Below are positions 1,206-19,531 of a DNA stretch of 31,572 nt, piece by piece. The stretch lies in the IMG/VR virus record IMGVR_UViG_3300029171_000001. One strand, written 5' to 3'. The stretch is from a virus. Within the stretch, counting starts at the first letter, position 1. Each line of letters begins with the position of its first letter. The translations under genes were made by a program, and so were the position numbers. Under the pieces are notes generated by a model, which was not told the DNA's origin, did not search any database, and saw only the letters and a program-made list of their open reading frames with translations.

Positions 1206-1235
1206 AAAAAAGAGCAATAATCAAATTGCTCTTTT
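1206..1235 (-). terminator. intrinsic terminator ending the Leu/Cys tRNA operon
   Basis: AAAAGAGCAAT...ATTGCTCTTTT hairpin with U tract. Confidence 0.65.
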
Positions 1236-1239
1236 CAAT

Positions 1240-1313
1240 TGGAGGTCCTGACTGGATTTTAACCAGTGTAGCAGCTTTTGCAGAGCTGAGCCTTTTCTCT
1301 CGGCCACAGGACC
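1240..1313 (-). tRNA. tRNA-Cys(GCA)
   Basis: cloverleaf, loop CT-GCA-AA, encoded CCA; atypical T loop TTAAAAT. Confidence 0.85.
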
Positions 1314-1318
1314 ATTGA

Positions 1319-1395
1319 GACACCGACTGGAATCGAACCAGCATTTAATTAGTTTTGCAGACTAATCCCGCTATCCACGTATTGGGTACGGTGTC
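1319..1395 (-). tRNA. tRNA-Cys(GCA)
   Basis: GACACCG/CGGTGTC acceptor, loop CTGCAAA, TTCGATT T loop. Confidence 0.85.
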
Positions 1396-1399
1396 ATGT

Positions 1400-1457
1400 T
1401 ATACCCGAACAGGTATAGAAACTACATTTTTATAGAAACTATACCCGATCAGGTATA
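1400..1457. repeat. two near-palindromic 18-mers TATACCCGAWCAGGTATA, 40 bp apart
   Basis: copies at 1400-1417 and 1440-1457. Confidence 0.8.
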
Positions 1458-1459
1458 AA

Positions 1460-2365
1460 TTAAGCAGCTTTTTTGTTTTTACTCTTCTTGTACTTACCTG
1501 TTCTTCTCTTCTTTTGTTTATCACAAACGAAGTCTGCAGCACAATTAGCAGCCCAGCTATGAGGTTTATATCTTACCCTAAAACCTTGACCCTCTAAAGC
1601 AGCCTTCGCTCCTTCGTAAACATATGAAGATTTATTCTTCACATCTTTGTTGGTCATAGAAGCAAGGTAGCTTCTAAGTTTAGCTGGTTGTGTAAGTTGA
1701 ACATTCATTACATATTCCAACTCAGATTCGCTGATGTCATTCAACGAAAGAGTGTTTGTAGGATTTGTAACATTTATCAACCTGTCATTCTTTTCATCAA
1801 TGAAGTATTGTCTTCCCTTGATAAGAACCTTACCCTGAAGATCCTCTGGGATTTTAAAACCAGGGTCGATGTTAATATCTACGTCAAGTCCAATCAACTT
1901 ATTTTGGTGAGATGAATATCCTTGCGCAACAAGATCATCCATATTCATTCTCTTAACAACGCCATCAAGTTCTTTTTCAAGGTAGTTACCAAGATAAAGC
2001 ACACGCTCAACTTCACCCCAGATCTTTCCATAGATGCTAGATTCTTTAGCTGCTTTTACAAGTGCCTTATCTCTGTTTTTATCACCAGTTTTTTCTACCC
2101 ATAACCTCTCACTAGGTACAAGTTCTTTGTTGAAGATGTAGTGAACACCGTCACGTCTAAACTCATCGTAAAACGCAACCACACAAGCGTAAAGAGTGTT
2201 TCTACCCCTTTCTGCGGCATCGGCTCCGACAAAAACTTTGGTTCCTGGAAACTTCTTAAGATAGTTCCGAACATATTCACCAAGGTCTGGGATTAATTCA
2301 CCACCAAACTTCTTGAACCCTTTTTCAAGAGGAATTTTTTCTTCCATTTTTTCTACTGTTTTCAT
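1460..2365 (-). CDS. RNase H-like YkuK (DUF458) family protein with insertions
   Basis: motifs VFVGADA, YACVVAFY, WGEVER, LDVDIN, KPHSWAANCAAD. Confidence 0.7.
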   Translation of the reverse strand: MKTVEKMEEKIPLEKGFKKFGGELIPDLGEYVRNYLKKFPGTKVFVGADAAERGRNTLYACVVAFYDEFRRDGVHYIFNKELVPSERLWVEKTGDKNRDKALVKAAKESSIYGKIWGEVERVLYLGNYLEKELDGVVKRMNMDDLVAQGYSSHQNKLIGLDVDINIDPGFKIPEDLQGKVLIKGRQYFIDEKNDRLINVTNPTNTLSLNDISESELEYVMNVQLTQPAKLRSYLASMTNKDVKNKSSYVYEGAKAALEGQGFRVRYKPHSWAANCAADFVCDKQKKRRTGKYKKSKNKKAA

Positions 2366-2400
2366 AAATATATCTCAATTTTTACGAAAAACAAATTTTG

Positions 2401-2491
2401 TACTCCAGCTGGGATTTGAACCCAGATTGTGATCATTAATCCGTGAAGGATTTTAAGTCCTTTGCGTTTCAGCCAGTTTCGCCACTGGAGC
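2401..2491 (-). tRNA. tRNA-Leu(TAA)
   Basis: class II cloverleaf, loop CT-TAA-AA. Confidence 0.9.
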
Positions 2492-2551
2492 ATTTACCTT
2501 GTTCTTCTTGTTTATAATCGCTTCATTTCGTTTTTATTATTTTTATTTTTG

Positions 2552-2636
2552 TAGCCGAGGCGGGACTCGAACCCGCACGAGCGTAATGCTCACAGGATTT
2601 TAAGTCCTGCGTGTCTACCAATTCCACCACTCGGCC
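2552..2636 (-). tRNA. tRNA-Leu(TAA)
   Basis: canonical class II cloverleaf, loop CT-TAA-AA. Confidence 0.95.
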
Positions 2637-2651
2637 ATTTTAAGTATCGTT

Positions 2652-2688
2652 AAAAAAAAAGGACCCAGATTTAAGTCTGAGCCCTTTT
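2652..2688 (-). terminator. attenuator terminator upstream of Leu/Cys tRNAs
   Basis: AAAAGGGCTCAGA-cttaaa-TCTGGGTCC followed by T9. Confidence 0.85.
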
Positions 2689-2714
2689 ATCAAAAAAATA
2701 CTTTTTATAGATAC

Positions 2715-2828
2715 CTAAGAACTCAAACATAACGGTGCGCATAAACACAAAAAGCCATACCCTAGATCTGTTTTCACAGAAATAGATGGGCTCATTGACC
2801 ACGCTGTTATATTTTGATTTCTTTTCAT
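2715..2828 (-). CDS. putative Leu/Cys leader peptide, 37 aa
   Basis: MKRNQNITAWSMSPSISVKTDLGYGFLCLCAPLCLSS; lies between promoter motifs and terminator. Confidence 0.75.
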   Translation of the reverse strand: MKRNQNITAWSMSPSISVKTDLGYGFLCLCAPLCLSS

Positions 2829-2901
2829 CTTTTATAAATAAGCGGAAAAATTTCTTTTTCCAACACACAAATGTAATACTTTATTTTTTAATTTACAACA
2901 A

Positions 2902-2930
2902 TTATACGAAATATTTTTTAAAAGGTTACA
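2902..2930 (-). promoter_or_regulatory. ECF-type promoter TGTAAC-N16-CGTATAA
   Basis: one of six copies with identical spacing; TAnnTTTG also at 2868-2875. Confidence 0.7.
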
Positions 2931-2937
2931 TTTTTTA

Positions 2938-3132
2938 TTAATCCGTAAACGCTTTATAAGGTTCCCAACCCATTAACTCATAATGCTGCCTCATACAATC
3001 ATCTATGTCTTTACCAACAATTTCTCTAAGTTTTATAGCATCATGCTCTAAAAGTTTTTTAGATCTTTCATCACCTTTTTCAACAACAGTTACACTATTG
3101 TTAGATTCTGCTGTATAAATTTCTATTGTCAT
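2938..3132 (-). CDS. hypothetical protein
   Basis: 64 aa, TAATG overlap with upstream gene. Confidence 0.65.
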   Translation of the reverse strand: MTIEIYTAESNNSVTVVEKGDERSKKLLEHDAIKLREIVGKDIDDCMRQHYELMGWEPYKAFTD

Positions 3133-3617
3133 TACTTAAAATAACGTAAAAAAGGATGGTTGTATGGTTTTATTTTTGGCAAAGTAGATAAAAAATTTTT
3201 AAAAATTTTCAAGCCGCTTTTATCTGTTTGTTGCTCTAAGAAGTAGAGTAATTTTTCGCTTTCCTCTCTAGCTTTTTTCCAATCCACAGGACTATCTCTT
3301 TCTAAAAAAGACATAGCTTCTTGTTTTGTTATATAAACTTCATAATCAAGACATTCACTTTTTTGACTAACACCTATTGGTATTTCACATTCAAGAAAAA
3401 TTTTTTGAATTTCATTTGCTTTTTCCTGAGTAAGTTTGTCAACAAGAAAACCATCAATCACCTCTATTTTTTCCAACTGAACTACTTTAGTTCTCTTTTT
3501 TCCTTCTTTACGTACAAAATTTTTACTTTTATCTAATTTGGACCAAGGGCTTTTTTTTATAAACCATTCAACTTTAAATCTTTCGTTTAATTTCTGTATT
3601 ACTATTTCTATATCCAT
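3132..3617 (-). CDS. hypothetical protein
   Basis: probable start MDIEIV just after the HNH gene stop. Confidence 0.65.
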   Translation of the reverse strand: MDIEIVIQKLNERFKVEWFIKKSPWSKLDKSKNFVRKEGKKRTKVVQLEKIEVIDGFLVDKLTQEKANEIQKIFLECEIPIGVSQKSECLDYEVYITKQEAMSFLERDSPVDWKKAREESEKLLYFLEQQTDKSGLKIFKNFLSTLPKIKPYNHPFLRYFK

Positions 3618-3627
3618 TTTTACATTA

Positions 3628-4161
3628 TTATTTTTTCCACCTTCCAATTGTAGCGTGTGACACTCCATATTTATTAGCACACCACATTACACCATGTTCT
3701 TTAATTTCTTTTTTTAACTCATCTATGTCTGGCCTTACAAAGATTCTTTTGTTTTTTTCATTACAAGGCCTGCAGCGTTTATAAGTATAATTAATTTCAA
3801 CACCACAATCACAGCATTTCGGTTTATTAACCTTTGGTTTGTTTATCAAAATTGTTTGTTCAAGATTTTTCACTCGCTCTCTAACGTCTTTAACCAACAA
3901 ATCTTCATTATGCACTTCTCTATGACAATTAGCACAAACAACCAAACATTTTTCGAACTCCGATTCTATCCACTCCATTGTAGAATTAGAAAGTTTTCGC
4001 ATATCCAACTGACTTTCTTTAGCACCTGGATCTTTATGATGAAATTCAAATGCAGCCAAGTTTTTGTTATAACCACATTTTTCACAACATCCGCCTCGTT
4101 GATCTACAAGAAACAACTTACGTTTTAAACCTCTCAATTTTTGATATTCATATGTATTCAT
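3628..4161 (-). CDS. HNH endonuclease with C-terminal Zn-ribbon and HTH-like tail
   Basis: CEKCG...FEFHH...CANCHREVH; CxxC pairs; ANKYGVSHATIGRW. Confidence 0.85.
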   Translation of the reverse strand: MNTYEYQKLRGLKRKLFLVDQRGGCCEKCGYNKNLAAFEFHHKDPGAKESQLDMRKLSNSTMEWIESEFEKCLVVCANCHREVHNEDLLVKDVRERVKNLEQTILINKPKVNKPKCCDCGVEINYTYKRCRPCNEKNKRIFVRPDIDELKKEIKEHGVMWCANKYGVSHATIGRWKK

Positions 4162-4216
4162 ACTAATAAATAGTATAAAAAACTGAATATCAACATAAAA
4201 TTAAGGTTGATAGTTG

Positions 4217-4289
4217 TGGCCCCTGTCGGACTTGAACCGACGATCCCTTGATTATGAGTCAAGTGCTTTAACCACTAAGCTAAAGGGCC
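4217..4289 (-). tRNA. tRNA(CAT), probably Ile2 (lysidine)
   Basis: GGCCC acceptor start typical of Ile2; loop CT-CAT-AA. Confidence 0.85.
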
Positions 4290-4309
4290 TACAAAGAACG
4301 TTTAGGAAT

Positions 4310-4561
4310 TTACTCTTTCCATTGAGTGTTTCTATTATACTTCCAGGTTTTATATTCCCTGGCCTTGTACACATACACTGGCCTTCCACTTCCATGTCTT
4401 CCTTTTGAGCGCATGCTTTGAGGAGAACAGTCTATATAAAAAGAACCACTTCTTTTAGCACAAATGTAACAATAATCGTGATAATAATGTTTAGCGATTT
4501 TTGTATATTCTCTGCTTGTTTTTGCTTTATTCAGTTTAGCTCTGTTTCTGTTTATTGACAT
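4310..4561 (-). CDS. small basic hypothetical protein
   Basis: 83 aa with CxxC and terminal WKYNRNTQWK. Confidence 0.65.
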   Translation of the reverse strand: MSINRNRAKLNKAKTSREYTKIAKHYYHDYCYICAKRSGSFYIDCSPQSMRSKGRHGSGRPVYVYKAREYKTWKYNRNTQWKE

Positions 4562-4615
4562 CGGTCATCGTTTTAGAGATTAACCTAACGACATCCAGAT
4601 GCATATTTAAAAGGG

Positions 4616-4939
4616 TTATTCATTTTTTAATTCAATTTTAATATATTCTTCTATTGTGTTAAGAAGATGATTTGTTTGAAATTTTATTGAACCAATGGTG
4701 ATGCCAAACATTTCTAGTTCTCTTTTCGAAAATTTTCCATCTCTGATTGCTTCTGAAATTGCGAAAAACTGAGAAGTACCCGCCTTACTTGAAGACATCT
4801 CCTCTGAATCAAAACGTTTTAACATTTCATAAATAGCATCCCTTAGACTATGGTTGTTCCATTCCTCTTCTTCAAAGTTTAAAACAATATCCTTATTAAC
4901 AGGATATCCAACAACTGGTATGACAACTTTGCTTTTCAT
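4616..4939 (-). CDS. hypothetical protein
   Basis: probable start MKSKVV. Confidence 0.55.
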   Translation of the reverse strand: MKSKVVIPVVGYPVNKDIVLNFEEEEWNNHSLRDAIYEMLKRFDSEEMSSSKAGTSQFFAISEAIRDGKFSKRELEMFGITIGSIKFQTNHLLNTIEEYIKIELKNE

Positions 4940-5298: not shown

Positions 5299-5955
5299 TT
5301 AAATCAACAAAGATAAATCTCCATTTACCTCTTCTTTTAATGCTCCTTCGCCAAACTCTAGCTTTAATCGCTCTAGCCAGTCATTTGTCTTGATTTTAAC
5401 AACCCAGACAGATCTGCTACCATCAGTCAAAACACCCTTGCACATAACACCTTCTTTTACCTTTCTTTTGCCCTCCCTCACAGAGAGTATAAATTCTTCA
5501 GTAAGTGGTCCTTGATAAATAACCTTTGGAATGTGAAGATTTCCGAAATCTTTAATAAATTGCTTGGGTTCTACAAAACTATTATTCGTATAATCACCTG
5601 GCGCTATATCAAATAACACAACATCCATTGTGTCTCCAGATTTGTGACGGCCAGCAAATGAATTCTCACCTACATACTCAGCAAATACTGTAAAGTTTTT
5701 TGTGTTTCTATAGTTTTTGCTCTTTGTGAAGATCTCCTCTAGGGCATCTCCATATTTTTTTTCAAACAAAGATACCACACCTTCAAATTGAGCACTACTA
5801 TCATTGATTAGATTGGTTCTGGTGCCAAATTTATACCACCCCTTATTCTTACTCCACTCCGCACGAAAATTTTGTCCATCTAGTTTATCAAATGCAATAA
5901 TATGAGAACCAATGAGACCCTGATTAAAATATTCAATATGTGGATATGCTTTTAT
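5299..5955 (-). CDS. RNA ligase family nucleotidyltransferase, apparent ATA start
   Basis: frame extends 59 codons above the tracked GTG and contains KLDG (motif I); also FAEY, VLFDI, KEGV, VKIK motifs. Confidence 0.75.
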   Translation of the reverse strand: MKAYPHIEYFNQGLIGSHIIAFDKLDGQNFRAEWSKNKGWYKFGTRTNLINDSSAQFEGVVSLFEKKYGDALEEIFTKSKNYRNTKNFTVFAEYVGENSFAGRHKSGDTMDVVLFDIAPGDYTNNSFVEPKQFIKDFGNLHIPKVIYQGPLTEEFILSVREGKRKVKEGVMCKGVLTDGSRSVWVVKIKTNDWLERLKLEFGEGALKEEVNGDLSLLI

Positions 5956-6143
5956 GGTATAAGTTTAATATTTTCTTTTTTAGAATCACTGTAATAACTC
6001 ACAGAATCCCCCTCAATTAATTTTTTAATTTGAGTAGCAGCGTCTTGAAAATCTTTTTTATAATGCTCAAGCTCAATGCCACGTATAAATGTGGAACTCA
6101 CAATAAGATCCACAATTTGTTCTTCTGTAATTTCTGTTTTCAT
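5952..6143 (-). CDS. hypothetical protein
   Basis: 63 aa, preceded by TATATTTG at 6148-6155. Confidence 0.6.
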   Translation of the reverse strand: MKTEITEEQIVDLIVSSTFIRGIELEHYKKDFQDAATQIKKLIEGDSVSYYSDSKKENIKLIP

Positions 6144-6165
6144 AAAACAAATATAACAATTTTTT

Positions 6166-6250
6166 TGGTAGTGGTGAGGGGGTTTGAACCCCTATTTTCA
6201 ACGACCAGTTACGTTTCTCCAAGGTATAAGCTTGGGACGGTACACCACTA
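6166..6250 (-). tRNA. atypical D-armless tRNA-like RNA, anticodon TAT (Ile)
   Basis: acceptor stem with CCA, CCAAG-CTTATAC-CTTGG arm, T arm; no D arm. Confidence 0.7.
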
Positions 6251-6255
6251 TATTG

Positions 6256-6337
6256 TCGGCCTGGAGGAATTTGAACCCACGTTTTCAACACCGCTACAAG
6301 TTATCCATCTTATCAGGATGGTCTGAGTACAGGCCGA
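6256..6337 (-). tRNA. atypical D-armless tRNA-like RNA, anticodon GAT (Ile)
   Basis: TCGGCCTG/CAGGCCGA stem, CCATC-CTGATAA-GATGG arm, T arm; no D arm. Confidence 0.7.
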
Positions 6338-6347
6338 TTGTTTTTTG

Positions 6348-6431
6348 TTGTGACGGCGGGGATCGAACCCACGTTGACATTTCTGTCCCATCTTATCAGG
6401 ATGGTGCCTAAAACCACTCGACCACGTCACA
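6348..6431 (-). tRNA. tRNA-Ile(GAT) with long variable arm
   Basis: cloverleaf; GACA-GAAA-TGTC variable hairpin. Confidence 0.85.
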
Positions 6432-6439
6432 ATATTAAG

Positions 6440-6514
6440 TAGTCCCAGACAGATTTGAACTGTCGACATCATGCGTATCAGGCAAGCGCTCTAACCAGGC
6501 TGAGCTATAGGACT
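6440..6514 (-). tRNA. tRNA-Ile(GAT)
   Basis: canonical cloverleaf, loop CT-GAT-AC. Confidence 0.9.
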
Positions 6515-6816: not shown

Positions 6817-6835
6817 TTTATTCCTTTATTTTAAG

Positions 6836-6909
6836 TGACCCTGGGGAGGCTCGAACTCCCGACCTTGATGTTAAAAGCATCTTGCTACCACCAGCTGAGC
6901 TACAGAGTC
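6836..6909 (-). tRNA. tRNA-Lys(TTT)
   Basis: cloverleaf, loop CT-TTT-AA. Confidence 0.9.
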
Positions 6910-6919
6910 ATAATTTCTG

Positions 6920-7006
6920 TGCGTCTGGCAGGAGTCGAACCTGCGATGGAGTTTTACCTCACCCGCTTAAGAGGCGGGTCCTGTCGGCCACTAAGGGAAC
7001 AGACGC
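6920..7006 (-). tRNA. tRNA-Lys(CTT), long variable arm
   Basis: loop CT-CTT-AA. Confidence 0.85.
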
Positions 7007-7020
7007 AATTATTTTTTCTG

Positions 7021-7104
7021 TGCGCCTGGAGGGATTCGAACCCCCGATGGATTTTACTCGACTGGTTAAAAGCCAGTTGCTATCAGCCGCTAAGCGACAG
7101 GCGC
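7021..7104 (-). tRNA. tRNA-Lys(TTT), extended variable region
   Basis: loop CT-TTT-AA. Confidence 0.85.
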
Positions 7105-7118
7105 AGTTATGTTTTGTG

Positions 7119-7205
7119 TGCGCCTGACAGGATTCGAACCTGTGATTGAGCTTTCGCTCGTCTGCTTAAAAGGCAGTGCCGTTAGGCCTCTACGGGAACA
7201 GACGC
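7119..7205 (-). tRNA. tRNA-Lys(TTT), long variable arm
   Basis: loop CT-TTT-AA; GAGC-GAAA-GCTC variable hairpin. Confidence 0.85.
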
Positions 7206-7220
7206 AAATTTTATTTATTG

Positions 7221-7293
7221 TCCTCCCGCTTGGAATCGAACCAAGCCTTGTCGGTTAAAAGCCGAGTGCCTACTGCCAGTTTGCTACGAGAGG
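7221..7293 (-). tRNA. tRNA-Lys(TTT)
   Basis: loop CT-TTT-AA. Confidence 0.85.
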
Positions 7294-7383: not shown

Positions 7384-8025
7384 TTACTTTTTTAATTTCA
7401 ACATTAATCTATCAAATCCTATTGCGAACCCAATACCTTCTTTGTATGTTCCGCCGCCTACAACTTGTTTCTGAGCTCCTAGTGATGGTAAAGAAATTTC
7501 AAATCCTTCATTCACATAATAACTCAACCCTCTCTTTACATTTTCACTGACTTCATATTCATCAGTTACCAACTCCACCATTCTTTTTGCAAGAGAAACT
7601 AATTCCTCTCTTGCTTTTTCCAGGTCTCTTGGATTTATCCACTCCAGACCAAATTGAAAGAACTCTCTATATCTTCCTGTTTGTGGTCTTTCATATCTCC
7701 AACACCTTTCAAAATACCACAGCTTTACATCCTTTTGTTGCTTCCAATATTTGTTTGCAATCAACTGTACTGTTGCAGTACCTTCAGGTCTTAAACAAAT
7801 ATCTCTCTCACCCTTATCTTGAAACACATACATCTGTCCAAGAATTTCTTCCCCTGCTTTTTCCGTGTATATCGACTGTGGTTCGATACTCGGAAGAATT
7901 ATTTCATTGAAATTTTCTGCATGTGCAATCTCGATCATACTGTTAAGGATTATACGTCTATCCTTTGCTTCTTGACCAGAGATGATTCTTACACCCTTGC
8001 TTTGTTTTTCAATTTCTAATTCCAT
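7384..8025 (-). CDS. minimal histidyl-tRNA synthetase-like protein (class II catalytic core only)
   Basis: LRPEGT, RYERPQTGRYREFFQ, RGLSYY, GGGTY, GFAIGFDRL; 213 aa, no anticodon-binding domain. Confidence 0.85.
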   Translation of the reverse strand: MELEIEKQSKGVRIISGQEAKDRRIILNSMIEIAHAENFNEIILPSIEPQSIYTEKAGEEILGQMYVFQDKGERDICLRPEGTATVQLIANKYWKQQKDVKLWYFERCWRYERPQTGRYREFFQFGLEWINPRDLEKAREELVSLAKRMVELVTDEYEVSENVKRGLSYYVNEGFEISLPSLGAQKQVVGGGTYKEGIGFAIGFDRLMLKLKK

Positions 8026-8188: not shown

Positions 8189-8193
8189 TTCAG

Positions 8194-8266
8194 AGCCACA
8201 GGTCGGATTTGAACCGACAACCTCAGGTTTACAAAACCCGTGCACCGCCAATTGTGCTACTGTGGC
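8194..8266 (-). tRNA. tRNA-Thr(TGT)
   Basis: cloverleaf, loop TT-TGT-AA. Confidence 0.9.
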
Positions 8267-8339
8267 ATTTTAATTTTTCTACGCAACTTGCTGGTTCGGC
8301 CAAGTCTATAAAAAATTATAAAACAGTCTCATAACTGAG

Positions 8340-8421
8340 AGCCTGAGAGGAGATTCGAACTCCTGGTGTTTGTATTCTCGCTTACAAGGCGAGCGCAATC
8401 GGCCACTAATGCAACACAGGC
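8340..8421 (-). tRNA. tRNA-Thr(TGT), extended variable region
   Basis: loop CT-TGT-AA; one acceptor mismatch. Confidence 0.8.
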
Positions 8422-8444
8422 AATATTTTATTCTAAAGAACTTG

Positions 8445-8516
<72 letters not shown>

Positions 8517-8531
8517 TTGTTGTGTTTATTG

Positions 8532-8603
8532 AGCATCTTTCCAGACTTGAACTGGTTTCTCATGCTTACGAAGCAAGTGCATCACCATCAATGCTTAAGA
8601 TGC
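8532..8603 (-). tRNA. tRNA-Thr(CGT)
   Basis: loop TT-CGT-AA. Confidence 0.85.
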
Positions 8604-8608
8604 TTTTG

Positions 8609-8700
8609 GGTGCATGACGGGATTTGAACCCGTGTTGTTTGCTTTCGCTCTTCCTGCTTCACAGGCAGGTTCCTTCGACCATACTCGGACCACACGCACC
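8609..8700 (-). tRNA. tRNA-His(GTG), long variable region
   Basis: G-1:C73 pair, loop CT-GTG-AA. Confidence 0.85.
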
Positions 8701-8712
8701 ATATTAAAAATT

Positions 8713-8789
8713 GGGCAACAAAGAGGAGTCGAACCTCAAGCAACTAGTATACGGTACCACTAAGGTACCTGCGCTCCACAGCTGCTGCC
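8713..8789 (-). ncRNA. tRNA-like RNA with His-type 8 bp acceptor and loop CTTAGTG
   Basis: GGCAGCAG/TTGTTGCC stem, GGTAC/GTACC arm, GAGG-TTCGACT-CCTC T arm; reduced D region. Confidence 0.55.
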
Positions 8790-8795
8790 ATAACG

Positions 8796-8871
8796 GGTAA
8801 CATATCGGGTTCGAACCGATGACCTCTTGAATCACAATCAAGCGCTCTAAACCAACTGAGCTAATGCTACC
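8796..8871 (-). tRNA. tRNA-His(GTG)
   Basis: G-1:C73 pair, loop TT-GTG-AT. Confidence 0.9.
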
Positions 8872-8875: not shown

Positions 8876-8957
8876 ATTGAGGAAATTGTGTTAGTGAATT
8901 TTTCATTAACAGTGAATTGCCTTACGGCGAGAAGTAACTAAACCACATGGCCTCAAT
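8876..8957 (-). ncRNA. small structured RNA, paralog of 8965-9109 without the tRNA domain
   Basis: ATTGAGG/CCTCAAT closing stem; shared GGCCATGTG...GYTACTTCT and CAATTTC motifs. Confidence 0.6.
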
Positions 8958-8964
8958 AATAATT

Positions 8965-9109
8965 TTGTTGACAGAAATTGCACCAGCAATACGCTGCTCT
9001 ACCACTGAGCTACATTCCCAATTTTATTTCTTGTGGGAATGCCAGGAATCGGACCTGGGACAGGCGGCTTATAATGCATAGAAGTAGCATGACACATGGC
9101 CGTCAACAA
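8965..9109 (-). ncRNA. Y RNA (YrlA)-like RNA with circularly permuted tRNA domain
   Basis: order T arm, closed acceptor hairpin, D arm, all inside a terminal TTGTTGAC/GTCAACAA stem. Confidence 0.65.
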
Positions 9110-9291: not shown

Positions 9292-9295
9292 TTTG

Positions 9296-9372
9296 CTGAC
9301 CAGGTAGGACTCGAACCCACAACCCTCCCGCTAACAACGGGCCGCTCTAAACCAATTAGTAGCTACTGGTCA
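9296..9372 (-). tRNA. tRNA-Asn(GTT)
   Basis: loop TT-GTT-AG, G73. Confidence 0.85.
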
Positions 9373-9378
9373 TTTTTG

Positions 9379-9465
9379 CTGTCCTGATGGGATTCGAACC
9401 CACGACCCTTCGCTTAACAGGCGAGCGCTCTAAGACTTTCGTCAAACCGCTGGAGCTACAGAACA
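9379..9465 (-). tRNA. tRNA-Asn(GTT) with hairpin inserted in the D loop
   Basis: loop CT-GTT-AA; GAC-GAAA-GTC inside the D loop. Confidence 0.85.
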
Positions 9466-9472
9466 GATATTG

Positions 9473-9544
9473 CTCTTCAGGCGGGGATTGAACCTGCGAC
9501 CCTTCGCTTAACAGGCGAGCGCTCTACCACTGAGCTACTGAAGA
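9473..9544 (-). tRNA. tRNA-Asn(GTT)
   Basis: canonical cloverleaf. Confidence 0.92.
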
Positions 9545-9621: not shown

Positions 9622-9879
9622 TCAAAGAACATCACCAAGTTCGTTTCGCAAATCTTTTTTGAGTTGTTGTCTTACTCCTTTTTTTAGTGAGCGATTTGCG
9701 TTTCTCACCTCTTCTTTTTTACTTTTACTCTTCAAGTTACTTGGCACATCTTGAGAGTGATCTATTGTCCATTTTCTTTCCTGGTTTTTCGAGAAGGGTG
9801 TCATTTTTTTATGCTTACCTTCTTTTTTTACGATTCCACTTTTAGAACCTGGAACAATTTTATTTTTTTTATTGCTCAT
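9622..9879 (-). CDS. small basic hypothetical protein
   Basis: 85 aa Lys-rich ORF, first gene after the attenuator. Confidence 0.65.
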   Translation of the reverse strand: MSNKKNKIVPGSKSGIVKKEGKHKKMTPFSKNQERKWTIDHSQDVPSNLKSKSKKEEVRNANRSLKKGVRQQLKKDLRNELGDVL

Positions 9880-9906: not shown

Positions 9907-9948
9907 AGAAAACAAGAAGGCCCGTATCTTGTGTGGATACGGGCCTTC
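9907..9948 (-). terminator. attenuator terminator of the large tRNA operon
   Basis: perfect 13 bp stem GAAGGCCCGTATC/GATACGGGCCTTC followed by TTGTTTTCT. Confidence 0.9.
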
Positions 9949-9984: not shown

Positions 9985-10086
9985 TCATGATCTGTTTCCT
10001 ACATACCCGTATACCAACGTTTTATTAATATGCTTTTTGCATATAATCGTTGTGTTATTGGTTGTATGTAAGATATTCATTAGCAT
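9985..10086 (-). CDS. putative Asn/His/Thr/Lys/Ile leader peptide, 33 aa
   Basis: MLMNILHTTNNTTIICKKHINKTLVYGYVGNRS; 18 of codons 4-23 are N/H/T/K/I. Confidence 0.85.
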   Translation of the reverse strand: MLMNILHTTNNTTIICKKHINKTLVYGYVGNRS

Positions 10087-10149: not shown

Positions 10150-10178
10150 TTATACGTACAAAGATAGAATAAGTTTCA
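10150..10178 (-). promoter_or_regulatory. ECF-type promoter TGAAAC-N16-CGTATAA with nested TATCTTTG
   Basis: repeated motif directly upstream of the leader ORF. Confidence 0.7.
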
Positions 10179-12758: not shown

Positions 12759-14732
12759 TTAAAAATCATACCCCCATTCGTGGATATTGTTTCCATCTGT
12801 GAATAGTTGTTTTGCCAAAACACGTTTAGTCAATATTTTATAAGAGTTTCTAAGATTGTCTTGACCGTGTTCTTTAGCATATTGTTTATTTATGGTAACC
12901 CAATCACCTTTGTTTATTTTTAACCCAGGAAGCAATTGTTTACTTAACTCTTCAGCTTGAGAATAAATGTCATCAAATATTAATTGCTGTTGTTTTTCAT
13001 ATCCATATTTTTCAATATCATATTTATCTTGTAAATCCCAAACCAGTTTAGTTTTTGGAGGGAAAAATCCAAATTTATTATAGTAATTTACAATATCGTA
13101 AAGCTGTGTTACTTTTGCTTTAACATCTTTATTAATATCAGGCACAGCTCTATAAATAACGATTATTGCATTGGGTTTGTTTCTAGCGCTTTTTATAATT
13201 GATATGCTTTCTACATCTTTAGAATCCCCATTATCACCGTACATTCTAACTGCATCTGGACCATATATATCTTCTGGATACATAGAAGTTAAATTATATA
13301 ACGGCGCACCGCTTTCTTTATCTGGAGCCTCATGTTCTCCAGCATATTCATTACTTTCATCCAGAATATCATCTGAAAAACCACATCTACGTGCAAATTC
13401 TTTTTCATTAATGTCTATCCCCTCACCCTTTAGACCCTTGATTTGATCAATTACCATCTTCTTTCTATTGTTCATGTCTTTTACTTGACACAATAAATCA
13501 ATAATACCAGATATCATCTCTGTGTTTTCTTCATCTTCGCCAGCAACAACTTCGTTTAAATTGCCTTGTTTATCCAACATATTATAATCAGAAATTTTAT
13601 CACCAGGTTTTATTTGTGTTGTGTTAACAATTTTATTCATGTTGTATAAAACCATCATTTTTTCACCCCAACCAAATGGATTATCTACAATTTCATAATC
13701 AATTCCATTATTAACATAAAAAGCTCTTAAATATTGAGTATTGGTGGATTTAATTGCTTTCTCGTTTAATATAATGTTGTTAAATGCATAAGCTACTATT
13801 TTGCCATCAACAACAAATTTTGGATTGCTTATTCTCTCCCATATTTGTTTTCTAAGATGTTTAATAACATATGTGTCAACAAACTGCTTCGCTTTGTCAA
13901 TATCAATAAAAGCATCATTTATGTCAACACCTTTTTCAACTGTTACGATATAAAGTTTACGGCTACCTCTTGCATATTTTGCAGCAACATCATATTTTGT
14001 AATCAGATAAAGACCAGCTCCCCATTCATATCTTCCATTTTTCTGAGCAATGATATCACTATAATCATCTAGATTTCCACCATGCCAAAAGGTCATCGTG
14101 TTTGGAATATCTGGAACCACAATTTCTTCTTCAGATAAATTTGAGTTTCTATTTTTCCAAAAACTTTGAGCATCTTGGCTTGCCACAGTTGAAATATCTG
14201 TTTTTAAACCAAGAACCTTATTGGCATAATCATGCATTGCGGTTGCTATTCCCTGCCTTCTTTTATCCTCTCTCACCCACAACCCATCAGAAAGTGTTGG
14301 TGTTGATCTATAGACTCCATCTTCACACTCTTCAAGCCACAATACCCCAACATTTTCTCCACCCAAATAACTACCAGTTCGCCCATATCTATCTTTTCTA
14401 TCAACTTGCTCGCCAAGTGTTTTAACAACTATGGTATAATATTGCCTGGAAGAACCACCACTTTCGTGAACAAAAATTATATATTTTTGACCAGACTTAT
14501 CTTCAAATATTTTTGAAGGGAGTGTTGAAGTATCAAATCCATAACCGTATGGAACGCCATCTAAAAATTTTGTTGACTCATTAAGGTCAACATCTATTTC
14601 ATACAATGTTTCACCCTCATGAGTATTTGCCAACAAAGCTGCCATATATTTGTGAACATCACCTTTAGTGCAACCAACTTTTGCACCAGTATCTTTACGA
14701 TAAATACATTTTCCCCTGATCTCGTATGGCAT
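12759..14732 (-). CDS. multi-domain polyvalent protein (GNAT-like plus ART-like modules)
   Basis: RRQGIAT acetyl-CoA motif; FWHGG...GAGLYL; IYRAVP...GDWVT...YAKEHG; probable start MPYEIRG. Confidence 0.65.
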   Translation of the reverse strand: MPYEIRGKCIYRKDTGAKVGCTKGDVHKYMAALLANTHEGETLYEIDVDLNESTKFLDGVPYGYGFDTSTLPSKIFEDKSGQKYIIFVHESGGSSRQYYTIVVKTLGEQVDRKDRYGRTGSYLGGENVGVLWLEECEDGVYRSTPTLSDGLWVREDKRRQGIATAMHDYANKVLGLKTDISTVASQDAQSFWKNRNSNLSEEEIVVPDIPNTMTFWHGGNLDDYSDIIAQKNGRYEWGAGLYLITKYDVAAKYARGSRKLYIVTVEKGVDINDAFIDIDKAKQFVDTYVIKHLRKQIWERISNPKFVVDGKIVAYAFNNIILNEKAIKSTNTQYLRAFYVNNGIDYEIVDNPFGWGEKMMVLYNMNKIVNTTQIKPGDKISDYNMLDKQGNLNEVVAGEDEENTEMISGIIDLLCQVKDMNNRKKMVIDQIKGLKGEGIDINEKEFARRCGFSDDILDESNEYAGEHEAPDKESGAPLYNLTSMYPEDIYGPDAVRMYGDNGDSKDVESISIIKSARNKPNAIIVIYRAVPDINKDVKAKVTQLYDIVNYYNKFGFFPPKTKLVWDLQDKYDIEKYGYEKQQQLIFDDIYSQAEELSKQLLPGLKINKGDWVTINKQYAKEHGQDNLRNSYKILTKRVLAKQLFTDGNNIHEWGYDF

Positions 14733-14733
14733 A

Positions 14734-17526
14734 TTATCTGTGTATTCCCTTACCTTGATTAACGTAATAATCAATATTATTAACTTTCTTTAATTGCTCT
14801 GAAACGGTTTTAAACAAAGCCTTAGCTGGAAGGCTTAAGTTTTTCACTGGTTTTCCATCTCTCATATTTTCACAATAAACCCTCACCTCTTTAATTGCTG
14901 TAGCCATTTGGAATTTATCCCTAGCTGCGTCTACCATATCTCTTGAGTATAAATCTAAATAACCCAAAATTGCTGAATGGACCTGGAAACTCTGTGTTTG
15001 TTCTGTGTTTTGTTTTACACCATTATCAACTGGTTTTTGTTGCCCCAAAGCAACAGAAGTAAATAAAGAAAGTGCTACTACTAAATTTTCTTTCCACCCC
15101 TCTTCAATTTTCTTTGGCTCCTTTTTAGGTAAAGCAACAAACGCCTCAACTTCTGTTTCTCCATTTGCAAGCCTAACCGAACATCTGTTATATCCATCGA
15201 GCAATATTCCATCAACAACCACTGGCTCATTGTGTAAATCGTCTTCGTGTGGCCCCTCATTATTTTCGATATCGGAATCATATCTACCACCTTCTTTTTG
15301 GTATGCCTCATAGTATTCTTTAAAACTTGCATCGCTATTTAATAAATCAATCAAAGATATTTTTTGTATTTTAAAACTTCTGTGAGCTATTAAATTTTTC
15401 ATAAAATAATCTGGCAGATCATTAGAGTCTGGTGTAATATTTCTTATATGGTTATTTACATCTCTACCTGAAAAAATCCAATCGCCGTTAATTTGCTTTG
15501 CTTCTCTTAAACTAACTTTATGATAATGATTAGAGTAAACATCTTCAGTAAGACCAAAATCAACTAAAACAATTGCGTCTTGTCCACCTCTTTTTACAAT
15601 TCCATATGAGTTTAATCTTTGCAAATCTCCAATTGGAAGATCATAGCCTCCTATAAAATTAAAAATAGAATATACAAACTCATCTTCCCACATTTGTTTT
15701 ACAATCTCAGGGTCAACATCCATTTCATAATTTGGTTTACCTTTTGCTTTAACCTGATTACCATAATTATTTATTGCAGCACAATAATCCTTAAAAGAAA
15801 AACCAACAATTCTTTCGAAATCTTCTTTAGATGCTGGTCTTGCTAATTCCATTTCCACCCACAAATTCTCTTCATCGTATTCAAACACTTGTGCCAAAAC
15901 ATCTTTAATGTCATAATAATTAGAATATTGTATTTCGACTTCATTTTGAGCTATACCCTTACCATTCTTTGCTAGTTTCAACACCTTATCGTTATCAATT
16001 TTATAAACTATCCTTGAAGAGCCTGCTGCCAATCTCTGTAAATTACTTTGACAATATTGAATACGTTGCTTAAAAGTTTTAAGAGCTTTAAAATAATTCA
16101 TATCAAAGTGTTGTGGGTATTCTTCATCTATTACAACCTCGTTTACTGTATCTACTTTTTTCAACAAATGCTTTTCAATAAAATTTATAACTCTCTTTAT
16201 ATCATTTACAGAATAAAACTCTCCAACTATATTTCCATCAGCATATAACAAGTATGAATTTTTATTCATTCCAGTTTTTGTATCTTTTCTAATTAAACCT
16301 ACGGCAACTCTTAAATCAATACCATTTAAATTTTTTCTAGCAACAGGATTATCATAATTGAACAGGTTTGTTCTTATATCTTTGTTGGCATTTCCAAAAC
16401 GTACAACGCCTGGAGGAAGATAATTTGATTCTATTTCTTTTTTTAAATCCAACGCTTGTTGTTTATTTAAAAACCCACCCTCAATTCCATTCTTATTTAA
16501 AACACTATTAATTTTGTCAATATTTGCCGCAACAACATTTTGTAAAACAAAAGATTCTTTAATTGTGTTTTTTACTATATCTCTTAACTCGTTTTTGCCT
16601 TCAACATAATGCTCGTAATGTTGTATCAATTGATTGTCGTTTAAATAATATTTTACATTTTCAGGAGTAAAATTTACAATTTCCCTGCCCTTAATTTCTA
16701 TACCATCATAACCAAGTTTAAGCATTTCTTGTTCAATAGAAGTATTGGCCTCAAATTCTCTTGCGTCTTTGTATTTTTTAAAAATCAAATTTTGTTGAAT
16801 CCATATCTCGGCAATATTGGCATCTCTAAAAACCATAGGGTTCTTTGGTTTTCCATTAACAACATAATAAACTGTCCCATACCCTTTTGCCATTGCTTTG
16901 TTACTAAGTGGTACCATGTATAAACCTCTTCCAAATCTTGCACTTGAACCGTTGGCGACATCTAGTGTAGAATCTGAAGATATGCCTCTATAAGTCACAT
17001 TTTTTCTTTTCCATTTTTTATATTCAGCCATGCTAGGATCATATTCCTCTTCTTTGAATATGTTTTTATTCGATGAATCCCACTCACCTTTATTTTTTAC
17101 AGATTTAAGTTGATTTGGCTCAAAAACAAACCCATCAAAATTTCCACTACCATCTGGTAGAATTGCTCCATCATAACCTAAACCTTTCAATTGACCAAGA
17201 CCATACTTTTCATATTCTTCCCAGCCAGCTGGATTTTGAATTGATGCGTATAGCTCCATGATGTGACCACTACCTGCAGCCCCAACTTCTCCAGCTTCAA
17301 TTGCTGACTTATTTGATGTGAACCATATGATCGGCTGGACCGACTTTTTTATGTTAAATTTGCTGAATTTTTTGCTGGTGCCGTGATAAACAACAATGGG
17401 CACCCCACCAGAGGAAACCTTACTACTGCCAAACCAAGACTTAAAATTGTCATTTAGATTATCTAGTGCTGGTTCAACTGCTTCTTTTAAAATTTGATTT
17501 ATGAATTTTCTAAGTTCAAATGACAT
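14734..17526 (-). CDS. multi-domain polyvalent protein (two ART-like, kinase-like, ParB-like modules)
   Basis: VYHGT...GYDG...PNQLKS; YRG...GRGLY; GSSRIVY...VLKLA...LVDFG; LLDGYNR. Confidence 0.7.
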   Translation of the reverse strand: MSFELRKFINQILKEAVEPALDNLNDNFKSWFGSSKVSSGGVPIVVYHGTSKKFSKFNIKKSVQPIIWFTSNKSAIEAGEVGAAGSGHIMELYASIQNPAGWEEYEKYGLGQLKGLGYDGAILPDGSGNFDGFVFEPNQLKSVKNKGEWDSSNKNIFKEEEYDPSMAEYKKWKRKNVTYRGISSDSTLDVANGSSARFGRGLYMVPLSNKAMAKGYGTVYYVVNGKPKNPMVFRDANIAEIWIQQNLIFKKYKDAREFEANTSIEQEMLKLGYDGIEIKGREIVNFTPENVKYYLNDNQLIQHYEHYVEGKNELRDIVKNTIKESFVLQNVVAANIDKINSVLNKNGIEGGFLNKQQALDLKKEIESNYLPPGVVRFGNANKDIRTNLFNYDNPVARKNLNGIDLRVAVGLIRKDTKTGMNKNSYLLYADGNIVGEFYSVNDIKRVINFIEKHLLKKVDTVNEVVIDEEYPQHFDMNYFKALKTFKQRIQYCQSNLQRLAAGSSRIVYKIDNDKVLKLAKNGKGIAQNEVEIQYSNYYDIKDVLAQVFEYDEENLWVEMELARPASKEDFERIVGFSFKDYCAAINNYGNQVKAKGKPNYEMDVDPEIVKQMWEDEFVYSIFNFIGGYDLPIGDLQRLNSYGIVKRGGQDAIVLVDFGLTEDVYSNHYHKVSLREAKQINGDWIFSGRDVNNHIRNITPDSNDLPDYFMKNLIAHRSFKIQKISLIDLLNSDASFKEYYEAYQKEGGRYDSDIENNEGPHEDDLHNEPVVVDGILLDGYNRCSVRLANGETEVEAFVALPKKEPKKIEEGWKENLVVALSLFTSVALGQQKPVDNGVKQNTEQTQSFQVHSAILGYLDLYSRDMVDAARDKFQMATAIKEVRVYCENMRDGKPVKNLSLPAKALFKTVSEQLKKVNNIDYYVNQGKGIHR

Positions 17527-17544
17527 ACCAATAAATAGTTTTTA

Positions 17545-17577
17545 AAAGCAAAAAGCTGGCCTTTTTGGACCAGCTTT
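17545..17577 (-). terminator. intrinsic terminator
   Basis: AAAGCTGG...CCAGCTTT hairpin with U-rich tail. Confidence 0.6.
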
Positions 17578-17586
17578 CAGCTTCTT

Positions 17587-17877
17587 TTAGAGGATCTCTC
17601 GGTTTTTAACCCAGATTCCATCTTCGAGTCTGTACAACCCTTGTGAAACCCATTTTCCATCAATTTGGAACATGTTTTCCAGGTGTTCAACTCTAATTGT
17701 CCAGATTTTTGGAAAACGGCTTAACCCAGTTTTTTCCTTAGCCATCTGTAAAGCTTCTTGTTCCGCTACCTCTCTAGTTTTGGTACCAGGTGTACTGGTT
17801 TCAACCCAGAAAGAGGGGGCTTGAAGTCCGAAACTGTTCGAGACTTCTACCCTCCATAGTCGTTGTTTGTTGTTCAT
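17587..17877 (-). CDS. hypothetical protein
   Basis: 96 aa ORF. Confidence 0.65.
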   Translation of the reverse strand: MNNKQRLWRVEVSNSFGLQAPSFWVETSTPGTKTREVAEQEALQMAKEKTGLSRFPKIWTIRVEHLENMFQIDGKWVSQGLYRLEDGIWVKNREIL

Positions 17878-17943
17878 AAGAACCCCATTGATAATTGATC
17901 ACTGGGGTTTTATGATGTATTTGTAAAACTAATTTTGACTATT

Positions 17944-18138
17944 TTAATCATTCTTTTCTTTTTGATAAACAACATCTAAAATTTCATAATACATTGTATT
18001 ATAAATATTTTGCTTTGCGATATAATCCAAATGTAATGTTTTTCTAGTTTGAGAATCCGTTGCATCTTGTACTAATTTTTCACAAACACACATATCATGA
18101 TATGCTACACACAACTCTTTTATTTTTAAGTGAACCAC
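17944..18138 (-). CDS. hypothetical protein
   Basis: 64 aa ORF, GTG start. Confidence 0.45.
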   Translation of the reverse strand: MVHLKIKELCVAYHDMCVCEKLVQDATDSQTRKTLHLDYIAKQNIYNTMYYEILDVVYQKEKND

Positions 18139-18178
18139 AATGTTTACTTTTAAATAACTAAAAATTTTATAAAACAGG

Positions 18179-18415
18179 CTATAGATTAAATTCTAAAATG
18201 CTTTTTTGTAGAATTTTTAAAAACCCATCTCTATCACCATCGCCATTTGAGTGAACTCCTTTGATTTCAAACAAAGGCTCTTCTTGACCTTCTTTATAAA
18301 ATAACATTCCATCCACAAGTGACCATAAATCAGAATTCCAAGACCAGTCCAACTTGTGTTTTACCATCAAATCTTTCATTTGGTTTACAAAATCTTCTTT
18401 ACTAATTTCTGTCAT
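18179..18415 (-). CDS. hypothetical protein
   Basis: ATGA overlap with upstream gene. Confidence 0.65.
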   Translation of the reverse strand: MTEISKEDFVNQMKDLMVKHKLDWSWNSDLWSLVDGMLFYKEGQEEPLFEIKGVHSNGDGDRDGFLKILQKSILEFNL

Positions 18416-18753
18416 AAATTAAAATTTGCATATCTAAACCCTTGAAATCCTTTCATTTCAATCGGAGCAATATGGTTAAACCTTCCTGATCTTTCTATAT
18501 AATTTCCTATTGGCCATTCTTTTCCAGTAGTTGTGCACTTAAAAGGTCCAGTTTTTGTCCCAACAATTTTCATCCAACCTTTAACTTCACCGTCGTGTAC
18601 AATATAACATCTATTACCAGGTAACACCTTTGGCATAGTGGGAACTTTGAAATTCATCACTTGAGATCCATCTTTGACCGCTTCTAATTCTTTTTCGTAA
18701 TCGTCCCAGGAAATAGTTTTTGGTAATGTAATTATTATATCTCTTCCAATCAC
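18412..18753 (-). CDS. hypothetical protein (possibly PUA/ASCH-like)
   Basis: 113 aa ending MKGFQGFRY; fold assignment tentative. Confidence 0.6.
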   Translation of the reverse strand: MIGRDIIITLPKTISWDDYEKELEAVKDGSQVMNFKVPTMPKVLPGNRCYIVHDGEVKGWMKIVGTKTGPFKCTTTGKEWPIGNYIERSGRFNHIAPIEMKGFQGFRYANFNL

Positions 18754-18844
18754 TTAAATACTTGTAAAATATAAATTAAAAGTTGACAAACTCCTGATAT
18801 TCCAAACATAATTGCTGCCCACATTTTTAAACTCAATTTATTCA

Positions 18845-19531
18845 TTATTTTTTCAATAATTCCAATTTGCCTTTCATGAACTGTTTCAAACTTGCTTCTT
18901 TACCAGTTTCATGATCGACAACTCTATCGTCTTTTTCACGATACGTTCTTTTTTTGTCTGACCTTTCACCACTTCCAATCTGTTCAGTTCTTACACCTGC
19001 AGATTCTTCATCGTGTCCAGTTTTATAAAAATTGTTTACCCTTTTCTTCATCTCCTTAAAAGCATCTTCTTTATTTTGATGTTGCTTTCTTCCATCTCTC
19101 ACAACTTTTATTCCCGTAGCATAGTGTGTCATAATAACACAACTATCCGTCACGTTCTTGTGTTGGCCACCTGCGCCAGAACCCCTGGTGAACTCAATTC
19201 TTACATCACTATCCTTGATATCAACCTCTTGATAAAAGGCTTCTTCTAATACAGCAACAGTAATTGTTGATGTGTGAACTCTACCCTTCCTTTCAGTCGG
19301 CGGAATTCTTTGCCAGCGATGACCGCCAGATTCATTTTCAAAATATTTTAGAACGTTATCTCCAGTTAGTCAGATGGAGATCAAACCAGGAGTTCAGTGT
19401 TCGTTGCTAACAACGAAATTATTATTTTTAGCTGCTTTGATATACATAGCAGCCATATCCCTGATGAGAAGTTTTGAGTCTTCTCCACCTTCTGCTGCTC
19501 TGAGCTCAAGTGTGATCTTTTGGTTTTTCAT
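18845..19531 (-). CDS. class I peptide chain release factor-like protein lacking domain 1, with two in-frame TGA codons
   Basis: one frame: ELRAAEGG...ESGGHRWQRIPPTERKGRVHTST...GAGGQH...RSDKKRTY; TGA at 19394-19396 and 19370-19372. Confidence 0.85.

Follow-up and report, generated by a model that had tools for sequence, protein, structure and literature searches.

The record IMGVR_UViG_3300029171_000001 of IMG/VR provides a stretch of DNA of 31,572 nucleotides from a giant freshwater phage, referred to below, at its full length, as the window. Its G+C content is 34%, and the minus strand carries almost all the genes of positions 1-24,000. We analysed in this window two operons of tRNA genes, each preceded by a short leader open reading frame (ORF) and an intrinsic terminator, and a release factor (RF) gene that is interrupted by two in-frame TGA codons. 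All the features of these operons and of the RF gene given below lie on the minus strand. As described hereafter, the leaders and terminators are organized as attenuators that would sense the codons read by the tRNAs encoded just behind them, and the interrupted RF gene could sense the efficiency of termination.

The best protein matches of the RF, and of an RNA ligase and a histidyl-tRNA synthetase (HisRS)-like protein encoded in operon 1, are found in the uncultured phages LR745206.1, LR756502.1, LR756504.1 and LR756501.1 (43-50% identity; genomes of 634-735 kb), which are the largest genomes of the Mahaphage clade and have Bacteroidetes as predicted hosts (PMC7162821). Nearer relatives are IMG/VR contigs, whose release factors are 52-75% identical to that of the window. 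Promoter-like boxes of the TAnnTTTG type are found 5' of both tRNA operons of the window, as well as of arrays in relatives. The span of positions 1206-19531 probably belongs to the set of translation genes of a huge phage of the Mahaphage type, with Bacteroidota-type promoters. The genetic code of the window is standard, as long ORFs are intact in code 11 and ORFs of 930, 681 and 671 codons are devoid of internal TGA; among 45 long frames, UAA is used as the stop in 35 and TGA in 7. A general recoding of TGA (codes 4 or 25) was rejected on the basis of these TGA-free long ORFs and of the use of TGA as a terminal stop. No tRNA with a UCA anticodon was detected in the window, using ARAGORN and Rfam.

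Operon 1 starts with a -7 box of the Bacteroidota TAnnTTTG type (TATCTTTG, 10159-10166), a TTTG motif being located about 20 nt upstream. This box is kept in the homologous array of the relative G002, and similar cassettes are found 5' of LR745206.1 arrays. Leader ORF 1 (9985-10086) is composed of 33 codons; those at 4-23 (NILHTTNNTTIICKKHINKT) are nearly all for Asn, His, Thr, Lys and Ile, the amino acids whose tRNAs the downstream array encodes. It covers every anticodon species of this array, and residues of its own set reach 62%, compared to 33% expected. The match goes down to the level of isoacceptors: ACA, ACC and ACG correspond to Thr anticodons UGU, GGU and CGU, AAA and AAG to Lys anticodons UUU and CUU, AUC and AUU to the Ile anticodon GAU, and AUA to a UAU-type RNA. 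ACG, in particular, represents 23 of the 355 Thr codons in window genes, as compared to 2 out of 5 in leader 1. This leader also holds one UUA and one UGC codon (10071-10069 and 10041-10039), which belong to the codon types that operon 2 would sense (Leu UAA and Cys GCA).

Terminator 1 (9916-9948) is an intrinsic terminator with a 13-bp stem and a T-rich tail. A segment located in the 3' part of leader 1 (10005-10014) can pair with the terminator 5' arm and is therefore a candidate antiterminator. When nascent transcripts were folded in silico with a masked ribosome footprint, positions 10014-10005 were paired with the terminator 5' arm for a ribosome at codons 1-21, and this pairing was lost with the ribosome over codons 22-31. 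In the homologous leader of G002, the composition is kept and the order of the regulatory codons is reshuffled; the antiterminator segment and the terminator are conserved. When the window and G002 are compared, one position is found to change in a compensating way in the leader segment, the terminator 5' arm and the 3' arm.

Operon 2 has a cassette of the same layout. Its -7 box (TACATTTG, 2868-2875), identical in the relative G005, is followed by leader ORF 2 (2715-2828), composed of 37 codons and ending with FLCLCAPLCL. In this final run, 7 of 9 codons are Leu or Cys codons, the Leu codons being UUA or UUG only. The 5' arm of the intrinsic terminator 2 (2657-2688) has two competing partners within leader 2. 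The body of the operon (1207-2636) contains two tRNA-Leu(UAA) genes, a 301-aa ORF with no assigned function and two tRNA-Cys(GCA) genes, and it ends with a final terminator (1236-1207). The promoter-leader-terminator cassette (2650-2950 in the window; L077:3400-3730 in G005) is 99% identical in the two genomes, whose RF proteins are only 52% identical, and identity ends right after the T-run of the terminator; the cassette may thus move by recombination. Two codon-sensing attenuators, as put forward in the initial annotation, are therefore present in silico, with a leader, a terminator and a competing pairing in both cases, and with codons matched to their own tRNAs.

The correspondence between leaders and arrays was assessed on 11 pairs, the two of the window and nine from LR745206.1, LR756502.1, G001 and G002. 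A leader and a terminator are present upstream of three of the four arrays of LR745206.1, of the single array examined in LR756502.1, of all four arrays of G001 and of the homologous array of G002. The make-up of the leaders differs as the arrays do, with, for example, leaders and arrays of the Glu/Arg, Gln/Phe/Thr/Val/Leu, His/Asn/Ile/Trp/Ser/Arg, Tyr/Pro/Asp/Gly/Ala/Cys/Lys and Pro/Asp/Gln types. The amino acids of the own array are enriched in 11/11 leaders (binomial P from 0.018 to 7e-7). In the 11 x 11 matrix, the top or joint-top score of each leader is obtained with its own array or with that of a homologue, and none of 100,000 permutations of the array labels reached the observed match sum, with the same outcome after dropping the two homologous pairs. 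The possibility that nothing is regulated, i.e., that constitutive tRNAs serve codon usage, that the leaders are chance ORFs lying by ordinary terminators and that the RF gene is a decaying pseudogene, is very improbable in view of these permutations, of the compensatory change spanning leader and terminator, and of RF stop positions kept over 39-75% identity in genes with intact PPT and GGQ motifs, an intact frame and no stops other than TGA or TAG, even though AT-rich DNA often contains short ORFs and hairpins and the ligase gene of operon 1 has lost its ATG.

The competing pairing was also found beyond the window. In 6 of 9 scorable cases, an unusually strong partner for the terminator 5' arm is located upstream of the terminator (z from -3 to -4.3), with the restriction that in two of the six the automatically picked arm also spans an upstream hairpin. 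Four of these six partners are located in the 3' third of the leader, and that of attenuator 2 of the window ends at codon 14. As regards their anatomy, their codon matching and their conservation, the predicted attenuators are thus well supported by sequence and comparison; from this we infer a readthrough response to tRNA supply and the direction of the switch. A search of the literature retrieved no paper describing leader-peptide attenuators for tRNA genes. One tRNA of the Pro/Asp/Gln array of LR745206.1 (407364-407437, L015) has an irregular anticodon loop, read as GUAG by ARAGORN.

The RF gene (18845-19531) has 228 codons and encodes domains 2-4, including the PPT and GGQ motifs (PF03462, PF00472). 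It is of the RF1 type according to its scores (210 bits for prfA, 116 for prfB and 68 for prfH), and its identification as PrfH or ArfB was rejected on the same basis. Domain 1 is missing: the prfA match covers model positions 103-333 of 347, and the relatives begin at the same point. A single frame, without any frameshift, runs through a first TGA at codon 46 (19394-19396, context CAC TGA A) and a second one at codon 54 (19370-19372, context ATC TGA C), and it ends with TAA. As there is no in-frame start codon between the second TGA and the GGQ motif, a functional RF product would need a double readthrough. The gating of a release factor by UGA, already noticed in the initial annotation, is therefore retained, and the identity of the factor can now be specified as RF1-type without domain 1.

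This interrupted organization is conserved. The RF gene was compared with 11 distinct homologues of 39-75% identity, among which 10 contain one or several in-frame stops and only that of LR756511.1 contains none. A stop is present at site 1 in 8 of the 11 and at site 2 in 9, and one homologue has an extra TGA nearby. The internal stops are all TGA, except for TAG at site 2 in L042-L044, which form one subclade, and are never TAA. Where homologues have no stop, site 1 is occupied by Ile, Val or Ser and site 2 by Ser or Lys. Such varied residues suggest that it is the stop as such, and no particular residue, that is selected. The base following site 2 is C in most homologues, and both UGA-C and UAG-C are weak-termination contexts, according to the ranking drawn from E. 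coli work.

As for the way in which the stops might be read through, LR745206.1 has two TGA in its RF gene, and none of its ~63 tRNA-like genes was found to have a UCA anticodon; the RF gene of G001 contains one TGA and one TAG, and the 28 tRNAs called in this genome include neither UCA nor CUA. Together with the lack of UCA tRNAs within the window, these negative results are more in favour of a sensor of weak termination than of a gate driven by a suppressor, odd decoders being another possible cause of readthrough. In G002, a GC-rich tRNA-like gene (L047:18692-18768) is located about 1.4 kb from the RF gene and has an 8-nt anticodon loop (CUCCUAGG), in which ARAGORN identifies four bases, CCUA, as the anticodon; this RNA could decode UAG or a quadruplet.

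ARAGORN called 19 tRNAs between positions 1240 and 9544 of the window, five of which are tRNA-Lys, and Rfam added a long-arm tRNA-His(GUG) at 8609-8699, a tRNA-Asn(GUU) with a 22-nt insert in its D-loop at 9379-9465 and a tRNA-like element at 6169-6249. Operon 1 successively contains three tRNA-Asn(GUU) (9295-9544; ARAGORN and Rfam), i.e., two standard ones and that with the D-loop insert; a tRNA-His(GUG) and its long-arm variant (8609-8870); four tRNA-Thr (8193-8603; ARAGORN) with anticodons UGU (two copies), GGU and CGU; the five tRNA-Lys (6835-7293), four UUU and one CUU, three of which have a class-II-like extra arm; two tRNA-Ile(GAU), one of them long-arm, together with two Ile-like RNAs lacking the D arm and having UAU and GAU loops (6166-6514); and finally a tRNA with a CAU anticodon (4216-4289), the last one of the operon. 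A weak tRNA-like element lies between both His tRNAs (8714-8789); it matches, weakly, the tRNA-Sec model only, and relaxed ARAGORN settings give no normal anticodon.

The redundant and structurally altered tRNAs that had been pointed out in the initial annotation are thus present, and their extra arm is conserved. The long-arm tRNA-Lys are 85-88 nt in length, and one common structure accounts for 10 of them from four genomes (the window and three related phages). Compensatory changes affect 18 of the 23 pairs of this structure, extra arm included, which indicates that the altered tRNA-Lys are a conserved design rather than the result of decay. The anticodon loops of all five tRNA-Lys are standard (CU-NNN-AA). 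At 9.6%, Lys is the commonest residue encoded in the window, where AAA and AAG codons are used in a ratio of 588:139; the UUU and CUU genes, present at 4:1, reflect this usage.

Several other genes are embedded in operon 1. The first one after attenuator 1 encodes an 85-aa basic protein (9622-9879; 19 Lys and 5 Arg) with no family match, whose G002 homologue is 60% identical. The HisRS-like protein (7384-8025) is, as initially proposed, a small HisRS, with a 213-aa catalytic core (Pfam tRNA-synt_His, 8.6e-21; hisS model, 162 bits). Compared with a solved 434-aa HisRS, it covers residues 4-166 and 261-295, with conservation of the class II motifs and of the histidine-binding loop (motif 2, RGLSYY and GGGTY align to the solved HisRS), and it has neither the insertion domain nor the C-terminal anticodon-binding domain. 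No BLAST match to it was obtained in the first 20 kb of G002.

The RNA ligase (5299-5964), also proposed initially, is a 221-aa protein with a KLDG motif, reduced to the adenylyltransferase domain (PF09414, 7.7e-10). PF09414 is the sole ligase family matched, the models of the T4 Rnl1 family giving no match, and a search of PDB sequences yielded no relative. The PF09414 match appears only if the frame is read from 5964, where the start position is occupied by ATA in the window and by ATG in LR745206.1, LR756502.1 and G002. This ATA overlaps the TAA stop of an upstream 63-codon ORF (5952-6143), which G002 does not have at the same spot. Translation of the ligase may begin at this non-standard codon through coupling, or else the gene may be weakened. 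A frameshift from the upstream ORF into the ligase frame was rejected, because of stops in the path. No end-healing kinase or phosphatase was found among the ORFs of the window. The HisRS and ligase genes adjoin His and Lys arrays in the window, in LR745206.1 and in LR756502.1, in a shuffled order, which argues for a functional tie to the arrays.

Operon 1 also encodes a pair of structured RNAs (8876-9109), the larger of which resembles a circularly permuted tRNA mimic of the YrlA type. The order T arm, closed acceptor stem and D arm can be read in its sequence, in agreement with the Y-like RNAs of the initial annotation, whereas the match to the YrlA covariance model (8989-9066; local E 1.9e-6) scores 37.2 bits, below the gathering score of 69. 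No TROVE (Ro60) gene is present in the window; such genes were found in three of five relatives searched (G002, G001 and LR745206.1) and were absent in the two others. Over the first 20 kb of G002, BLAST gave no match to the YrlA-like RNA. Since the minus strand is free of predicted terminators between 9916 and 2688, co-transcription with operon 1 is plausible, and the HisRS, the YrlA-like RNA and the RNA ligase probably share its control.

Other genes of the window are found around these features. Between the tRNA island and the RF gene (12759-17526), unrelated genes encode two large polyvalent-type proteins, the first with an ADP-ribosyltransferase domain (ART-PolyVal) and the second with a weak match to GNAT. 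The RF gene is closely preceded, on its upstream side, by the genes for an ABC-transporter-like membrane protein (20061-20891) and for an HD-domain protein (20918-21589), the latter without any early in-frame stop. HNH endonuclease genes stand at the edges of tRNA arrays (3628-4161 and 31044-31562) and, as the G002 homologue sits between two Asn tRNAs, they look like mobile homing elements.

Taken together, these data suggest a mechanism acting at two levels. During elongation, slow decoding of the leader codons would stall the ribosome and leave the 3' leader segment free to pair with the terminator 5' arm, and the RNA polymerase would then read into the tRNA genes; upon fast decoding, the ribosome would cover the antiterminator segment and the terminator would form. 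At termination, the full RF1-type factor would be made only after readthrough of the two leaky in-frame stops, and its output would rise with weak termination, by the host RF2 at UGA, or by RF1 itself at the UAG variant of some relatives. It would then support termination at UAA, the predominant stop of the long window frames. Two cis-acting feedbacks, i.e., elongation attenuators and a termination gate, are the explanation that we favour, with reasonable though far from complete confidence. Its likeliest purpose would be to match the translation capacity supplied by the phage to demand, whatever the cause of the shortage (codon mismatch, decay of host RNA, starvation or tRNA nucleases), a tRNA-nuclease defence being one possible trigger among several.

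Some observations weigh against this explanation. Equilibrium folds always retain the very stable terminators and are uninformative on the switch; since the terminators always win at equilibrium, a kinetic switch is required. Among all the leaders, that of attenuator 2 has the weakest enrichment statistics (P 0.018), and its sole relative, that of G005, is 99% identical and hence gives no covariation. Promoter-like boxes are present inside operon 1, at 6155 and 5288, and could uncouple the ligase. Finally, two serial stops imply a very low basal RF output unless readthrough is boosted, and an RF1-type factor is unable to cure a failure of termination at UGA itself.

The initial annotation had gone further and considered positions 1206-19531 as one self-sensing rescue module, in which each component is gated by the defect that it would fix and which would serve as an inducible counter-defence. 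Self-sensing fits the supply of tRNAs, as both operons lie behind codon-matched attenuators, and is plausible for the HisRS, since leader 1 contains His codons. The rule fails for the RF, since a factor of the RF1 type cannot act at UGA, the codon by which it is gated. Nor do the components form a single conserved module. In the window, the distance between the RF gene and attenuator 1 is about 9 kb, with a similar placing in G002. In LR745206.1, about 300 kb separate this gene from the arrays, and in LR756502.1 its distance to the ligase and HisRS genes is about 270 kb. In our opinion, the span probably carries two separate kinds of conserved feedback devices acting on translation, rather than one module dedicated to rescue.

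A counter-defence role may at most be conjectured. According to this possibility, the whole span would be switched on when anticodon nucleases, such as PrrC or PARIS AriB, cut tRNAs: the five tRNA-Lys would replace the cut ones, the ligase would repair them, the HisRS would recharge them and the RF would restore termination. Phage tRNAs are indeed known to defeat defences that target tRNAs (PMC10264068, PMC11464382, PMC11555353), attenuators would respond to a loss of tRNA, Lys is the most redundant isotype both in the window and in relatives, the extra-arm variants are conserved, and three genomes show a linkage of the ligase to Lys arrays. However, the attenuated arrays of relatives are not restricted to known targets, as Glu, Arg, Gln, Phe, Val, Pro, Asp, Gly and Ala, among others, are represented in them. 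The standard loops of the five tRNA-Lys are unlike the loop changes of escape tRNAs (PMC10264068), and the UUU and CUU gene copies fit the use of AAA and AAG in a window where Lys is the commonest residue. The ligase, moreover, belongs to PF09414 without any match to T4 Rnl1 models and is accompanied by no end-healing kinase or phosphatase among the window ORFs, and the RF is unlinked to the arrays in LR745206.1 and LR756502.1. We consider this scenario rather unlikely: arrays covering nearly all the amino acids, unaltered Lys loops, Lys copies fitting codon usage and the lack of a healing enzyme lead us to prefer a supply driven by demand.

Alternatively, the RF could be part of a timed programme, in which its stops are read by a phage decoder, such as a suppressor, an odd tRNA or an over-produced tRNA-Trp. 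RF1 would then be produced at a middle or late stage, in the course of a partial switch of the code like that of recoded phages, and the role of the attenuators would be limited to setting the dosage of tRNAs. A useful yield past two serial stops does need efficient decoding, and recoded Jade phages carry a module that consists of a suppressor tRNA, TrpRS and RF1 (10.1101/2021.08.26.457843). The TAG of site 2 in L042-L044, and the odd tRNA of G002 with its CUCCUAGG loop close to the RF gene, would fit as well. Nevertheless, UCA tRNAs were found neither in the window nor among the tRNA-like genes of LR745206.1, the tRNAs called in G001 include neither UCA nor CUA, the window is otherwise standard-code, and the second stop lies in contexts that rank as weak for termination in E. 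coli work. We regard such a programme as quite unlikely.

Coming back to the two feedbacks, tRNA genes are usually viewed as constitutive or controlled by growth rate, and phage tRNAs as passive supplements. If the codon-matched attenuators operate as proposed, the virus would measure the speed of decoding codon by codon and top up exactly the tRNAs in short supply, and, with the stop-gated RF1, termination would come under a similar logic. These two ideas would lead to a different interpretation of the large translation gene sets of huge phages. In its most general form, the proposal would be that huge phages run a closed-loop control of translation: each block of tRNAs, with the co-transcribed synthetase, ligase and Y-like RNA, would be transcribed according to stalling at its own codons, the domain-1-less RF1 would be translated according to failed termination, and both would jointly provide a broad, inducible antidote to attacks of the host on tRNAs and release factors. 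This general form is tentative and, on balance, doubtful. Inducible counter-defence is its least supported part, and that with the widest consequences for the conflict between phages and hosts.

Although a literature search retrieved no published description of these two devices, tRNA attenuators and a stop-gated RF1, several known systems resemble parts of them. The YrlA-like RNA seems to share a permuted tRNA-like domain with bacterial Ro60/YrlA modules (Rfam RF02553), and TROVE genes exist in related phages, but its score is below the threshold of the family, it has no TROVE gene in the window and it is embedded in a tRNA array. The combination of a phage RNA ligase with a KxDG-type motif and of redundant tRNA-Lys is reminiscent of the T4 repair system directed against PrrC (Pnkp and Rnl1) and of defence-evading tRNAs (PMC10264068, PMC11464382). 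In contrast with the T4 system, we find a 221-aa ligase of PF09414, no healing enzyme among the window ORFs and unaltered anticodon loops.

Interrupted genes for release factors have precedents. In stop-recoded phages, a module made up of a suppressor tRNA, TrpRS and RF1 is written in the standard code and serves genomes full of in-frame TGA (Borges et al., 10.1101/2021.08.26.457843). The likeness lies in a phage RF1 that reshapes decoding together with tRNAs and synthetases; here, however, the genome is standard-code, the stops are inside the RF1 gene itself and no UCA tRNA was found. In Mimivirus and Megavirus, translation of a class-I RF gene passes two internal stops, recoding having been shown by experiment (Jeudy et al., 2012, PMC3521657). 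This is likewise a virus-encoded termination factor with two internal stops, but of the eRF1 type, from eukaryotic giant viruses, and with one frameshift and one readthrough, whereas the gene of the window would require two readthroughs and encodes a bacterial RF1 without domain 1. Finally, prfB, which encodes RF2, has a premature in-frame UGA that is passed by a +1 frameshift, and weak termination raises the synthesis of the factor (PMC12421855). The gene of the window is similarly a release-factor gene interrupted by a premature stop, but it contains two stops and its frame continues without a +1 frameshift. In addition, an RF1-type factor does not read the UGA that gates it and would be cross-regulated instead of autoregulated, with the exception of the TAG of L042-L044.

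The closest parallel of the tRNA operons is provided by the attenuators of amino-acid operons. In trp, his, ilvGMEDA and pheST, a short leader rich in regulatory codons precedes an intrinsic terminator and a competing antiterminator, and the position of the ribosome decides which fold is adopted. Multivalent leaders exist, as in ilv, and pheST is an aminoacyl-tRNA synthetase operon under leader-peptide attenuation. The same layout of leader, terminator and antiterminator is predicted in the phage tRNA operons. The phage cassettes differ in that they would control the tRNA genes themselves, together with a HisRS core, and in that a phage leader would sample up to nine anticodon species at once.

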